Shown here piece after piece: positions 2,452 to 22,268 of a stretch of 57,840 nucleotides of DNA. The DNA lies in the NCBI GenBank assembly GCA_010093995.1, contig ML992501.1:2871194-2929033 (forward strand), given 5' to 3'. The notes beneath the pieces are model-generated. The model saw nothing but the letters and a program-made list of their open reading frames with translations. It was not told the origin of the DNA and searched no databases. Each line of letters begins with the position of its first letter. Position 1 is the stretch's first letter. Origin of the DNA: Elsinoe ampelina. Its lineage: Eukaryota. Made by a program: the position numbers and the translations under genes.

Positions 2452-3289
2452 TCAGAGTCTGGATTGATGCCAGGGCTTCTGCTTTTTCCATTCGAGGTTG
2501 CAAGGATTAGAGGGTGTGAGACTTCGTATCGAGAATTGATTCAGACTATCGACAAGGAGCCATGCAGAGCCAAGTCTCATAGCCCTTTGTTCCCAAGCTG
2601 CGGCGCAAGGAATGCGTGTGGCTTCCAACAGGGATATTACTACCAGAACATCAATACAACCTACTCTCGCGCGACTTGCGACAGGCCAGAAGAAATGGTC
2701 TGGTAGTATCAACGGCATACCGCCACCTCGGCCGACTCTTCTGCCTCGAGCACCGAAAGAGTGTTGCAGATCGTGGGAGATATGACTGTGGTGTTCTTGC
2801 TCGACCTCAAGGAGCTCACACTCCTCGATGGCTGGCTTGGTAGGCTTTTTCAATCGCTTGTACACCTTCTTGAGGTTACCGTCTTCATCCTTTTCGCCGA
2901 GGTCGATTGGTTTAGAAGGACCCTTAACATAGCCACGCAAATGCGGCTCTCGCTTCTTCTGCTTCTGCGGGATGACGGAGAATGACGAGAGTACAGGAGT
3001 ATCATGTTGATGAGCCGCCATTTTGCATGGTTCTGCGGCATCTGTCTCTCCAAGCGTGACTTCCTCGCACATGTCCTTAAATGGTTGAAGGACTGAGAAA
3101 ACGTGGGCCGTTGGCGCATGAGATAGTGAACGAGAACCCCAGAATCTGGAAGCGAGCGGCCAATGCTCTCCAATGCTCTGGTCGGATCATTGCAACATCT
3201 ATATCCCGGATGAGAAGTTGAACATCTCGACATGAGCCTGTAGGCAGGTCTTCATTGTCTGGAAGCTGGGAGCGCTTGATTGAATCCAT
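2452..3289 (-). other. Possible lineage-specific or decayed gene (overlapping ORFs in three frames)
   Basis: ORFs 3289-3077, 3233-2850 and 3072-2452 overlap in series. The Lys/Glu-rich segment QKQKKREPHLRGYVKGPSKPIDLGEKDEDGNLKKVYKRLKK looks protein-like, but no family is recognised. Confidence 0.3.
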
Positions 3290-3458
3290 GGCATAAAGGA
3301 ATGCAGTGTTCTCCTCATAGATGCTGTGGACTCATTTCTTGTAGATTATCTCCTTTGCCTCTTCACATCTAGAACCTAGAACCGGATGAAGCGTTCAGGA
3401 TCACGTATGTCCAGGATTGTCGCCAGTAGAAGCTTCCGCTCCAGCGTCCTGCACAATA

Positions 3459-3695
3459 GCTGGTAGTATGTGAATCGTGTGACTACCAGAATATGATCGA
3501 CTTATCTTCTTGATCAGATGTAGAGCCCAGGCTGGTAGGCGGACTACTATGAGACTAGCACAACCTCTAGATCCTGCTATAACCATCACAGCTGGTAGTA
3601 TTTAGGGTACAGGACTACCAGAGAATGACTGATGTAACCTCAGAGTCCATGAACTCGTTTCGAGCTGGAAGGATTTATATTGCAGAACTACCAGG
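3459..3695. repeat. Degenerate tandem array of four palindromic units (GCTGGTAGTAT-N11-GACTACCAGA) with dissimilar intervening sequence
   Basis: Units start at 3459, 3531 (loop deleted), 3591 and 3664 (degenerate left arm), spaced 72, 60 and 73 bp. The arms are exactly 14 bp apart in units 1, 3 and 4. Confidence 0.75.
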
Positions 3696-19040: not shown

Positions 19041-19159
19041 GCGAAACCATTCCTCCGGCTCGTTTCGTGGGATGAAAGTTCTCCAACACCTTCAAAGCTG
19101 ATAGTGCAGCACATTGATCACCGACAACCTCTGGACGATCGACAAGCAATACCGTCCAA

Positions 19160-20486
19160 ATGTCGCACCGAAAGTTCGAAGCTCCCCGCCATGGGTCTCT
19201 GGCATTCTTGCCACGAAAGCGCGCAGCCCGTCACCGAGGCAAGGTCAAGAGGTAGGATGAATTCATAGTCGACGACGACATCCCAGGTCTAATACAGTAA
19301 CAGCTTCCCCAAAGATGACCCGAAGAAGCCTGTTCATCTCACTGCTGCCATGGGCTACAAGAGCGGTATGACCACCATTGTCAGGGACTTGGACCGACCT
19401 GGCGCGAAGAACCACAAGAAGGAGATTGTAGAGGCATGCACAGTCATTGAGACCCCACCAGTCAGTCAATTCCACGGACACAGACGCAAAAAGCCATTAA
19501 CACATGACAGATGATTGTTGTCGGTCTTGTCGGCTACATCGAGACTCCCCGTGGTCTCCGCTCCCTCACAACCGTCTGGGCCGAGCACTTGAGCGACGAG
19601 GTCAAGCGTCGCTTCTACAAGAACTGGTACAAGAGCAAGAAGAAGGCTTTCACCAAGTACGCCAAGAAGCACTCCGAGAGCACTGGTTCATCCATCACAC
19701 GCGATCTCGAGCGCATCAAGAAGTACTGCACAGTCGTCCGTGTCCTCGCCCACACTCAAATCAGCAAGACTCCTCTCAAGCAGAAGAAGGCCCACCTTAT
19801 GGAAATTCAGGTCAACGGTGGCTCCATCCCCGACAAGGTCGAGTTCGGTCACGGTCTTTTCGAGAAGCCAGTCGAGATCAGCTCCATCTTCGAGCAGGAC
19901 GAGATGATTGACTGCATTGCCGTCACCAAGGGTCACGGTTTCCAGGGTGTCACATCAAGATGGGGAACCAAGAAGCTGCCGAGAAAGACGCACAAGGGTC
20001 TCCGAAAGGTCGCATGTATCGGTGCATGGCATCCGTCACACGTTCAGTGGACCGTTGCCCGTGCTGGTCAAATGGGTTACCACCACCGTACCTCTGTCAA
20101 CCACAAGGTCTACCGCATTGGCAAGGGTGACGACGAGGGCAACGCCTCGACGGAGTTCGACGTCTCCAAGAAGAAGATCACCCCGTATGTTCCGCACCCC
20201 CCAAGTATAATCAGTACTAACATCTCCCAGCATGGGTGGCTTCGTCCGCTACGGTATTGTCAACAACGACTACGTCCTCCTCAAGGGCTGCGTCCCAGGT
20301 GTCAAGAAGCGAGTCATGACCCTCCGCAAGACCATGTTTACCCAGACCAGCCGCCGTGCGCTCGAGAAGGTCGACCTCAAATGGATCGATACCTCGTCCA
20401 AGTTCGGTCACGGTGCTTACCAAACCCCAGCGGAGAAGCACCAGGTGCTCGGTACCCTCAAGAAGGACCTTGCTCCTGCTTCGTAA
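19160..20486 (+). CDS. RPL3: 60S ribosomal protein L3 (uL3)
   Basis: [22 protein letters not shown]...[10 protein letters not shown]...[11 protein letters not shown]; three introns (~19252-19303, 19461-19510, ~20185-20230). Confidence 0.98.
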
Positions 20487-22268
20487 AGGGTTGGTGGTTG
20501 ATGCATGGTTTTCTGACGGCGTTATTCACGTTGCAGCGCTACGAAATAGGTACCCAGGTAGCATGCAGCAGAGCGAATGAGAAGAAGTTGACATGTCCGT
20601 CTTTTTTGTCTGTATGTCTGTGCTATGTAATACCTTGTCAACGCTGCATACATCCATGGAGACAGCAGGAAGGATCTCGCCCTGTCCCTGGAGCACTGCG
20701 GTAACCCCGAATCTATTCCTCACATATTCCCAGAGGTCTTTCGTAGTAATCTCTGTGGTCGCCTCCGACTGCCTCACAGGGGTCATTCACTAACGAAGAC
20801 AGTGATGCCAAAAGTTGCGAATGAGGGCAAGGGTGGGTTTGGGGTTGGCCATGGGTGGGGAGCAGGATGGGTAGGAGAACAGGTGACAGGACAATAGGCA
20901 AGCAACAGGAAGGGAAATATGATGCGCTCGGGTAGTATTTAAGGACCGTCAGCATTCTATGCGCTTACCTCAGCCATGTTGGTCGAACAACATGCAACAC
21001 AAGAACAGAGGGCATAGAACTACCAGGAAACAAGTTAAAGTGTGTCGTTGAACTATTCAGAGTTTGTGGGAAGCGAGAGACTCGCTTCTTGTTCGTTACG
21101 CTTTCGTCAGACGACTCAAGCATCTTCAGATGTGGTTGAAGGTTGACGTCCTGGGCAGGATGAAGTTAAACAAACATCCCCAGATTACCAGGCAGAGCCG
21201 CAAATGTCGTCAAAAAGCAGGGGGCCCGTGACGTGCTTTGCTGCTTTTCAACGTCTCCTCTCTGTTTCGCATCTTGCTTTCTGCCTAGACTTTCAAATTT
21301 CGAGCATTTTTCGTCGACACATCGATCACAGCTCGGCCACATGACTATGAGGTGAACCACTTGTCCATCAACAAAATGCTCGCATTCTTCCAGTCAGCCA
21401 TTTCTATTCGTGTAGAGACTAGCGAAGGAACCGTCGGCCAAGACCGAACGGGAGGCCTGTATCTGCCTATTTTTTCGTTGCTACTTTCGTCACATCTCCA
21501 TCCTTCTTGTGGTTCACCGCGAGCAAAAAGGCAGTCGATGAGGATGCGACGCCATCGTTCACTCACTGCTATTCATGGCTACCAACGCAGATATTTTGTC
21601 TTTCCACTTCTGCCGGAGACTTGCTAAAGGACACGCCTTCCGGGCATGTCTCATATCACAGGGAGAAGCTGCCGACTTAGGCAGCGGTCACGCACCAAGA
21701 ACACCGCCTCCCTGGTCGTGACCAAACGGTGTTTGGAGCGGTTCCTCCCTACGGACCAGCACACAGCGTAGGACTGACGAGCCATGGCTGAGCATGTCCG
21801 GACAAGGCTTCCACGCTGTGTGAGCGAATACCTATCACTTTCACCCTTTCGACACCTACGCTGGCTATTCGCGCCAACCGGGGCACTTCTGGCATCAGAG
21901 TCGTAGTGCCTTTGCCTTGGCAATGAGCAGTCAGCCACAGTCAGGGTGTCCACGGTGAGTCTTTCAAGAAAGACGCTGCTTTATTTATGGCACTAGCACC
22001 GAGCATGCCCATCTCTCTTCAATGACGCATACTTGGTCTAGTCCGCTCCTGAACTGCGGCACCGCGACTCCACCTCTTTGTGGACATGAAGCCGTAGCAG
22101 CAAGGCATGCTGCCTGATACCTCTTTTTTCCTAGAATCCTTTGTCACCAGACACTCCATTTCACAACGCCCCATGACTCCCATCTGCCCCCTCAGCCACT
22201 CTCCCGTTCATATATGTAGGTCTGTCCCCTCCTCTCATGCCTCTGGTAGTAATCTTGTGTTGCTGAAG

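Follow-up and report, generated by a model that had tools for sequence, protein, structure and literature searches.

The window analysed here is a stretch of 57,840 nt of Elsinoe ampelina DNA in which one octamer occurs exactly 25 times, around a Upf1-like SF1 helicase pseudogene and near or within genes that include acetyl-CoA synthetase (ACS), RPL3, a P450, an MFS transporter and a peptidase M49. An earlier sequence-only reading had listed 25 exact copies, and all of them (25/25) were found at exactly the coordinates listed. The copies and the variant half-sites that accompany them are as follows.

2639..2646, minus strand: exact octamer half-site, in the Elsinoe-restricted ORF 2452-3072
2700..2707, plus strand: exact octamer half-site
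3460..3489, unstranded: head-to-head exact pair (3460 plus, 3482 minus), 14-base gap
3532..3539, plus strand: variant half-site CTGGTAGG, 72 bp past 3460 in like orientation
3592..3621, unstranded: head-to-head exact pair (3592 plus, 3614 minus), 14-base gap
3665..3694, unstranded: head-to-head pair of a 2-mismatch left arm and exact 3687 minus, 14-base gap
5226..8642, plus strand: Upf1-like SF1 helicase pseudogene with one in-frame TAG (6453-6455) and motif copies both beside and inside it
5747..5754, minus strand: exact octamer in a helicase-frame insertion missing from homologs
5875..5904, unstranded: degenerate head-to-head pair of 2-mismatch arm 5875 and exact 5897 minus, 14-base gap, in a helicase-frame insertion
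6094..6101, plus strand: exact octamer in the helicase frame
6321..6350, unstranded: tail-to-tail pair of 1-mismatch arm 6321 and exact 6343 plus, 14-base gap
8383..8473, minus strand: tandem pair of variant 8383 and exact 8466, period 83
8644..8674, unstranded: head-to-head pair of exact 8644 plus and 1-mismatch arm 8667, 15-base gap, directly past the helicase stop codon
8946..8953, minus strand: exact octamer amid convergent gene ends
10750..10757, plus strand: exact octamer, intergenic
11045..11137, plus strand: tandem pair of variant 11045 and exact 11130, period 85
14701..15024, plus strand: cluster of exact 14701, 14767 and 14913 with variant 15017, periods 66, 146 and 104
16651..16658, minus strand: single exact octamer
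21019..21026, minus strand: exact octamer downstream of RPL3
22243..22250, plus strand: exact octamer just upstream of the P450 gene
42148..42155, plus strand: exact octamer in the MFS transporter coding sequence (MFS_1 domain)
45621..45628, minus strand: exact octamer just beyond the peptidase M49 stop
53695..53702, plus strand: exact octamer, intergenic

The pair at 3665 follows the pair at 3592 with a 73-bp period, its unit being weakly homologous to its neighbour (z 4.6), and the pair at 11045..11137 lies just outside the acetyl-CoA synthetase RNA contig, past its 3' end (11221). Not every copy stays outside conserved coding DNA. The five in the helicase frame occupy linkers or insertions poorly conserved among 10 homologs, but the copy at 42148 is in a conserved domain, and across the genome 14 of 39 copies in a random sample fall in predicted coding sequence (gene models from a 4th-order HMM built for this analysis), including ORFs with Pfam matches to Ssr4, PRP4/WD40, kinesin and a fungal transcription factor. 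An A-to-I-type rescue of the helicase stop was considered and rejected, because the homologs carry Tyr rather than Trp.

The concentration of copies described earlier was borne out, with 22 of the 25 in the first 22.3 kb (binomial p 4e-7) and 14 within 2.6-9 kb (p 5e-8); these p-values take the sites as independent, and the boundaries were chosen post hoc. Over-representation held up as well. Markov models trained on the window expect 1.7 (order 0), 1.5 (order 2), 4.3 (order 4) and 10.8 copies (order 5). When the training set is 306 kb of GC-rich DNA drawn from other parts of the genome, the expectation is 1.2 (order 2), 2.5 (order 4), 4.2 (order 5) and 6.7 (order 6). Enrichment thus persists across orders 1-5 trained outside the window and does not vanish against an order 4-5 background. 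The unselected 306-kb sample contains 39 copies against 13.4 expected at order 4, where the octamer ranks third among 32,190 octamers with two C-run words above it. An AT-rich sample of 95.5 kb contains no exact copy. The motif is not local to the window, and its treatment as a feature of one island has to be given up: it occurs 3,097 times genome-wide, compared with 1,510 for the reversed word as control, in hundreds of dispersed clusters and with fixed spacings. The excess is estimated at roughly 2,000 copies, and the density in the window is about 4 times the genome mean (25 seen against 6.3 expected). A literature search on the motif and its context, at the level of listings and abstracts, found no description of it.

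It is the spacing of the copies that constitutes the new result. Genome-wide there are 93 head-to-head exact pairs against 1 for the control (326 against 28 when up to 2 mismatches are allowed), and among the first 50 listed of the 93 the gap is 14-15 bases in 32 and below 12 in none. Tail-to-tail pairs number 31 against 0, with a gap of 10-13 in 23 of them, and short tandem pairs number 65 against 2, with a period of 18-21 in 42 and below 15 in none. A centre-to-centre distance of about 20-22 bp is common to all three arrangements. Five overlapping loci were removed before counts were pooled for the half-site matrix, location, gaps and units, and RIP indices; many loci were picked for containing pairs and residual overlap may persist. 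The partner half-sites so pooled yield a sharp matrix, (C/g)TGGTAG(T/g)(A/T), followed by A/T-biased, G-poor positions 8-11 beyond the octamer. Flanks are unrelated between loci and show no bias beyond position -1.

A second preference exists at longer range. Tandem periods of 63-93 were found in 178 pairs against 2 for the control, the adjoining bins holding 46 and 69, and among the first 100 listed of the 178, 60 lie at 72-76 and 14 at 83-85. Counted once per locus, the figure is 26 of 54 (p 4e-8), and other 8-mers show no 74-bp peak. With one pair per locus, periods of at least 39 and three entries spanning an assembly gap dropped from the 69-pair bin, a Rayleigh test at 10.55 bp gave R 0.38, phase 0.2 and p 3e-9 (n=135; free best fit 10.6). 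Phasing weakened when the 63-93 bin was left out, with R at 0.28, p at 0.0014 and the free best fit moving to 12.5. The preferred spacings of about 21, 74 and 85 bp are whole turns of the double helix. Of 48 units of about 74 bp, 20 are clear duplications and 20 have no detectable homology to their neighbours, so the spacing persists without sequence likeness. Most copies are nevertheless single: a phased partner was found for 9 of the 25 window copies (0-6 in shifted controls) and for 6 of the 39 in the random sample (controls 0-4). A metagenome scan for the paired pattern matched at least 119 loci, and among the matches listed none carried a cluster or more than 3 exact sites. Of four sequencing runs compared with the window, one covered the island. 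A bacterial promoter and terminator scan, not relevant to the motif, also found nothing.

Could such a word have arisen neutrally, through RIP leakage, codon usage, minisatellites or the folding of an RNA hairpin? Plain minisatellites do occur among the clusters, like the 19-bp array at locus L026, and the word can come from common codon strings, which the coding copies in the random sample would suit. However, the fixed spacings recur in three orientations despite unrelated spacers, and AT-rich DNA is devoid of exact copies. Raised TpA/ApT and depleted CpA/TpG, as expected of RIP products, are not seen around the sites: cluster DNA is at background for both indices (0.65 against 0.56 and 1.27 against 1.26; 2.03 and 0.47 in a RIP block). 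A structured RNA or tRNA origin finds no support in the searches, with no Rfam match in window positions 1-23000 and no tRNA in 14 cluster loci, and a hairpin would leave the tandem phasing unexplained. RIP, codon usage, tRNAs or a single repeat family do not explain the paired sites. The neutral reading is largely refuted, and we regard it as very unlikely. An association with RIP-block borders in the random sample was not reproduced among paired sites.

The paired sites are distributed across all intergenic types, 41 of 44 being non-coding. The nearest gene end is a 3' end in 22 and a 5' end in 18 (coding 3, undetermined 1), hence there is no clear promoter bias. A bias to convergent terminators in chosen clusters (38 per 10 kb) was absent per locus and in the random sample. 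Genes beside the clusters include orphan, duplicated or broken ones, both helicase copies among them, as well as housekeeping genes such as ACS, RPL3, a CDC48-family ATPase and a DEAD helicase.

One suggestion had been the footprint of a tiny mobile element. It is mostly unsupported, as flanks and spacers are unrelated between loci, just 8 head-to-head pairs among the first 50 in the list show the 17-base gap typical of a MITE of about 250 bp, and common flanks, terminal repeats and target duplications are confined to a 16-copy MITE subset. A different possibility is that a mobile-element protein reads the motif, through transposase subterminal sites or as a VANC-like anti-silencing factor, the clusters being decayed elements or captured genes. 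According to PMC5735166, the short 8-9 bp VANC motifs (VANC21 and VANC6) of Arabidopsis VANDAL transposons likewise form dense clusters in non-coding DNA and build up through tandem repeat formation, comparable to the duplicated units and non-coding pairs seen here. The MITE retains a head-to-head pair, the orphan, duplicated and broken genes could be such captured cargo, and in the random sample the GC-rich DNA of windows containing RIP blocks has 4.0 against 0.8 sites per 10 kb, an excess that depends on three or four windows. But VANC arrays, as far as that source describes them, keep one orientation and are dense solely in their own TE family, whereas the fungal motif is genome-wide, helically phased, in all orientations and also beside unrelated host genes. 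An AT-rich block lies in the stretch of just 2 of 44 paired-site entries, one being the far end of the window. A RIP-mutated 1.65-kb element has the MITE terminal repeats without the MITE interior or any exact octamer, and a search for Transposase_21, which was uninformative, gave no match. We consider a mobile-element reader improbable.

With a 12-bp arm and a 6-7-bp core, the motif would resemble a tyrosine-recombinase site. As in loxP, FRT and dif, the inverted pair of about 30 bp can be read as 12-bp arms around a 6-7-bp core, in which the A/T-biased positions 8-11 would complete the arms. The core length fits if the arms are 12 bp; unlike loxP, FRT and dif, however, the cores all differ and are not common to partner sites, the inner arm bases are weakly biased, and half-sites also occur in tandem and tail-to-tail. 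A recombinase or break-regulating protein that binds the motif, with phased sites spreading via 74/85-bp duplications or gene conversion and clusters marking rearrangement points, would be in keeping with the about 40% of 74-bp units that are duplications, with invasion of unconstrained coding DNA, where the motif shapes peptide repeats (locus L028), and with two Starship-captain-like DUF3435 genes in the genome. The E. batatas homologs of three window genes that span no more than 32 kb are separated by 60 and 293 locus tags and sit on equally long contigs. This synteny case is one locus without a background rate, two E. fawcettii homologs are both on 45.6-kb contigs, and one window-gene homolog matches across just 55% of its length. 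The spacers are unlike at every locus, which makes strand exchange between them impossible, and the tandem and tail-to-tail arrangements about 20 bp apart do not match the geometry of a recombinase. A search for Crypton-type NDC10_II gave no match, its controls also being blank. The 74-bp looping limit of Flp was set aside as an analogy, since a literature search found no match. We judge recombination-driven spread unlikely on balance. In a stronger version the motif would be a chromosomal signal that propagates itself: a recombinase-like protein, either the host's own or domesticated, would bind phased sites, promote 74/85-bp duplications or biased gene conversion so as to copy its own sites, and mark hot spots of gene gain, breakage and inversion; this too is unlikely in our estimation. 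Ohm et al. (PMC3516569) report breakpoints close to simple repeats in Dothideomycete mesosynteny, whose mechanism they describe as unknown. A self-propagating signal, if true, would give a sequence-level handle on mesosynteny, and if clusters track synteny breaks the driver of mesosynteny becomes directly testable.

A known factor was also sought, and the yeast Reb1 consensus did not match. The motif as a diverged site of a Reb1/TTF-I-type general regulatory factor would find its cognate Myb protein in the genome, at C1:1.52 Mb, with S. pombe Reb1 (5eyb) as best PDB match (E 2.5e-16), and TTACCCG is itself unenriched (11 against 13 expected). Yeast Reb1 has a likewise abundant non-coding site of 7-8 bp, whose core is TTACCCK (PMC12305957); the reverse motif CTACCAG agrees with TTACCCG at 5 of 7 positions, and the two mismatches leave the core unmatched. 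The Reb1-like G at position 2 was found in just 4 of 119 partner half-sites. As in S. pombe Reb1, the homolog retains DCRDRWR and LQCRYK stretches, so altered specificity would not be expected, and the promoter bias is absent. We know of no 21/74/85-bp spacing pattern for Reb1, and this reading has a very slight probability. The rDNA contig runs out at position 3109 of the 3401 in the model, short of the terminator region, and no further rDNA piece was found.

It is probable that some protein reads the motif. The earlier suggestion of a chromatin, insulator or recombination signal would fit the genome-wide, clustered and helically phased pattern, and the explanation we favour, to which we give about an even chance, is a site for an oligomeric chromatin-organising protein that has been multiplied by small tandem duplications. 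CTGGTAGT(A/T) would be the half-site recognised by an abundant, sequence-specific DNA-binding protein, with two protomers placed about 20-22 bp, or two helical turns, from each other in any orientation, head-to-head being favoured. At longer range, over 74 or 85 bp (7 or 8 turns), higher-order contacts may form, as with DNA looped or wrapped round a protein core. The likeliest role would be chromatin organisation, through domains of about 1-20 kb with a barrier or anti-silencing effect, and not the control of one regulon. Sites would multiply in weakly constrained DNA via small tandem duplications and point change, phased spacings being preferentially retained. To our knowledge, few cis-elements that serve as chromatin barriers, anti-silencing signals or hot spots of rearrangement are defined in filamentous fungi. 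The motif with its fixed two-turn and seven-turn spacings is a ready bait for identification of the protein and predicts the geometry of the complex precisely.

Plasmid iterons, the EBNA1 dyad (21 bp) and S. pombe Sap1 sites also stand two turns apart, direct or inverted, as in the motif pairs. Iterons and the EBNA1 dyad each occupy a single locus, whereas the motif forms hundreds of dispersed clusters with a second spacing of 7-8 turns. Within the MITE the octamer is conserved above its surroundings: in 16 copies chosen by their terminal repeats, 13 of the 256 cells in the octamer columns show a difference, against 263 of 1,707 nearby, a contrast whose significance is inflated because the copies are related.

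All 25 octamer positions of the sequence-only reading were verified, and the window contains no further exact copy. It was found that the enrichment holds when the Markov background is built from the GC-rich DNA (306 kb) in 40 unselected 10-kb stretches of the genome (25 copies seen vs 1.2-4.2 expected, orders 2-5). The crowding at the left was borne out, with 22 of 25 copies before 22.3 kb and 14 in the island at 2.6-9 kb, within boundaries that are post hoc. Not every copy lies outside conserved coding DNA. Copy 42148 lies within an MFS transporter domain, and conserved genes also carry single copies. 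The feature is bigger and more structured than had been described: it is an undescribed, genome-wide, helically phased motif. No description of it was found in the literature listings searched.

The 28.3-Mb genome, in which the window spans G000:C1:2871194-2929033, holds 3,097 exact copies vs 1,510 of the reversed word, which served as control. In the unselected GC-rich sample, 39 copies were counted where an order-2 model predicts 6.4 and an order-4 model 13.4, and the octamer ranks 3 of 32,190 at order 4. Counts are overdispersed (zero in 25 of 40 stretches; variance 2.8, mean 0.98). Roughly one-fourth of the randomly sampled DNA is AT-rich and of RIP type, and no exact octamer occurs in these 95.5 kb; the RIP indices of octamer clusters are at background level. 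Such a RIP-mutated, AT-rich block begins at window 56000-57840 (TpA/ApT 2.03). Twenty cluster loci, picked via pair listings, contain 5-24 octamers per 8-10 kb. The window is one among many octamer-dense domains; another, on contig C15, includes DUF7730 genes in tandem array (L031:1012-7774). No cluster in another organism was seen among the metagenome matches listed.

The octamers are regularly spaced. Head-to-head pairs at most 30 bases apart number 93 vs 1 for the control (326 vs 28 with two mismatches permitted). The first 50 matches listed of the 93 have gaps of 12 (3), 13 (2), 14 (11), 15 (21), 16 (2), 17 (8), 22 (2) and 25 (1). Tail-to-tail pairs number 31 vs 0, with a gap of 10-13 in 23. 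Tandem pairs number 65 vs 2, with a period of 18-21 in 42 and below 15 in none. The centre-to-centre distance is about 20-22 bp, or two helical turns, in all three orientations. At longer range, tandem pairs number 46 vs 0 at periods 39-62, 178 vs 2 at 63-93 and 69 vs 1 at 94-124. Among the first 100 matches listed of the 178, the period is 72-76 in 60, 83-85 in 14 and 77-82 in 5. Tandem periods of at least 39 are phased at 10.55 bp with an offset near zero (n=135, one pair per locus; R 0.38, p 3e-9), but the phasing is weaker without the dominant 63-93 bin (p 0.0014, free fit 12.5). Comparison 8-mers showed codon periodicity alone and no peak at 74 bp. Speaking against the pattern, a phased partner is present for only 9 of 25 window octamers (shifted controls 0-6) and 6 of 39 random-sample octamers (shifted controls 0-4). 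One stretch (L224) has a six-site array at 73-75-bp spacing. The pattern is visible in these parts of the window:

3460-3694
5875-5904
6321-6350
8383-8473
8644-8674
11045-11137

From the exclusion below about 15 bp, the two-turn peak in all orientations and the seven-to-eight-turn tandem peak, we infer an oligomerising protein that loops or wraps DNA; with a footprint of about 20 bp, it would leave such spacing. That the motif is a neutral by-product is very unlikely. Clear duplications account for 20 of the 48 units examined at about 74 bp; another 20 lack detected homology to the neighbour. Two repeat loci were observed besides. At L028:2755-5040 (G000:C6:850-852 kb), a 762-codon open frame without Pfam match consists of 72-75-bp repeats carrying the octamer in both orientations. 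At L026:2900-4600 (G000:C10:495-497 kb), possibly the end of some element, three ~72-bp repeats of another sequence are bordered by 19-bp octamer minisatellites.

Our own coding HMM places 41 of the 44 paired sites outside coding sequence, whereas coding bases make up 56% of GC-rich DNA. These 41 fall in convergent (10), tandem (14), divergent (9) and edge-truncated (8) gaps. Cluster octamers in coding DNA often lie in ORFs without Pfam match, read as recurring short peptides in both orientations. Since no gene-class or promoter bias was found among the 44 paired sites, a role in chromatin organisation rather than a regulon is predicted, with about even confidence. Candidate binders found are a Reb1 homolog and two DUF3435 recombinase genes. 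Although its homolog is present, Reb1 itself is hardly probable as binder, because the octamer fails to match the core given for it, TTACCCK (PMC12305957). The DUF3435 (Starship captain-like) tyrosine recombinase matches, at G000:C2:1516422-1516940 and C3:800541-801149, are without internal stops.

The suggested footprint of a tiny mobile element was for the most part not upheld. In a MITE family the octamer forms a single head-to-head pair whose gap is 17 bases:

L246-L262, e.g. G000:C2:360205-360454, MITE of ~250 bp with 19-bp terminal repeats, found in 16 copies

Its apparent 2-bp variable target duplication is CMC/EnSpm-like. Octamer columns vary less than nearby ones (13/256 vs 263/1,707) among the 16 copies, which are mutually related. 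A 1.65-kb RIP-mutated element on C4 near 1.921-1.922 Mb has the MITE's ends without its interior; the MITE, a minor carrier, is therefore not where the octamer comes from. A reader encoded by a transposable element, like VANC (PMC5735166), is rather improbable.

Comparison with E. batatas suggests that gene order may be broken across the motif-rich part, by intrachromosomal rearrangements over window 2452-34570. Homologs of the genes at 2.5, 9.1 and 33 kb have locus tags 4790, 4850 and 5143, 60 and 293 apart, on equally long contigs, at this one locus. Two E. fawcettii homologs are on contigs of one same 45.6-kb size. According to Ohm et al. (PMC3516569), mesosynteny is of unknown mechanism, with breakpoints near simple repeats. 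Recombination-linked drive of the motif is unlikely.

The island holds an Elsinoe-restricted ORF and an Upf1-like SF1 helicase (window 5226-8642, +), whose nearest named relatives are in Sphaceloma, Elasticomyces, Friedmanniomyces and Meristemomyces. The helicase is most likely a transcribed pseudogene, because it has a single in-frame premature TAG, where 10 of 10 homologs have a conserved Tyr, and an RNA-type contig runs across it without joint. As this contig is unspliced there, the intron in the public 1105-aa model probably stems from faulty annotation. A paralog on C10 (L085, L238-L239) is likewise split across frames, with octamers. In clustering, the window's Exo70 groups with those of E. 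fawcettii and E. batatas, which places the genome in Elsinoe. One RNA-type contig (window 11221-15581) spans a SurE-like gene and acetyl-CoA synthetase, which does not imply a single transcript, and crosses the octamer cluster at 14701-14913. At L267:3669-4047, a group I intron match adjoins the 3' end of an SSU rRNA match.
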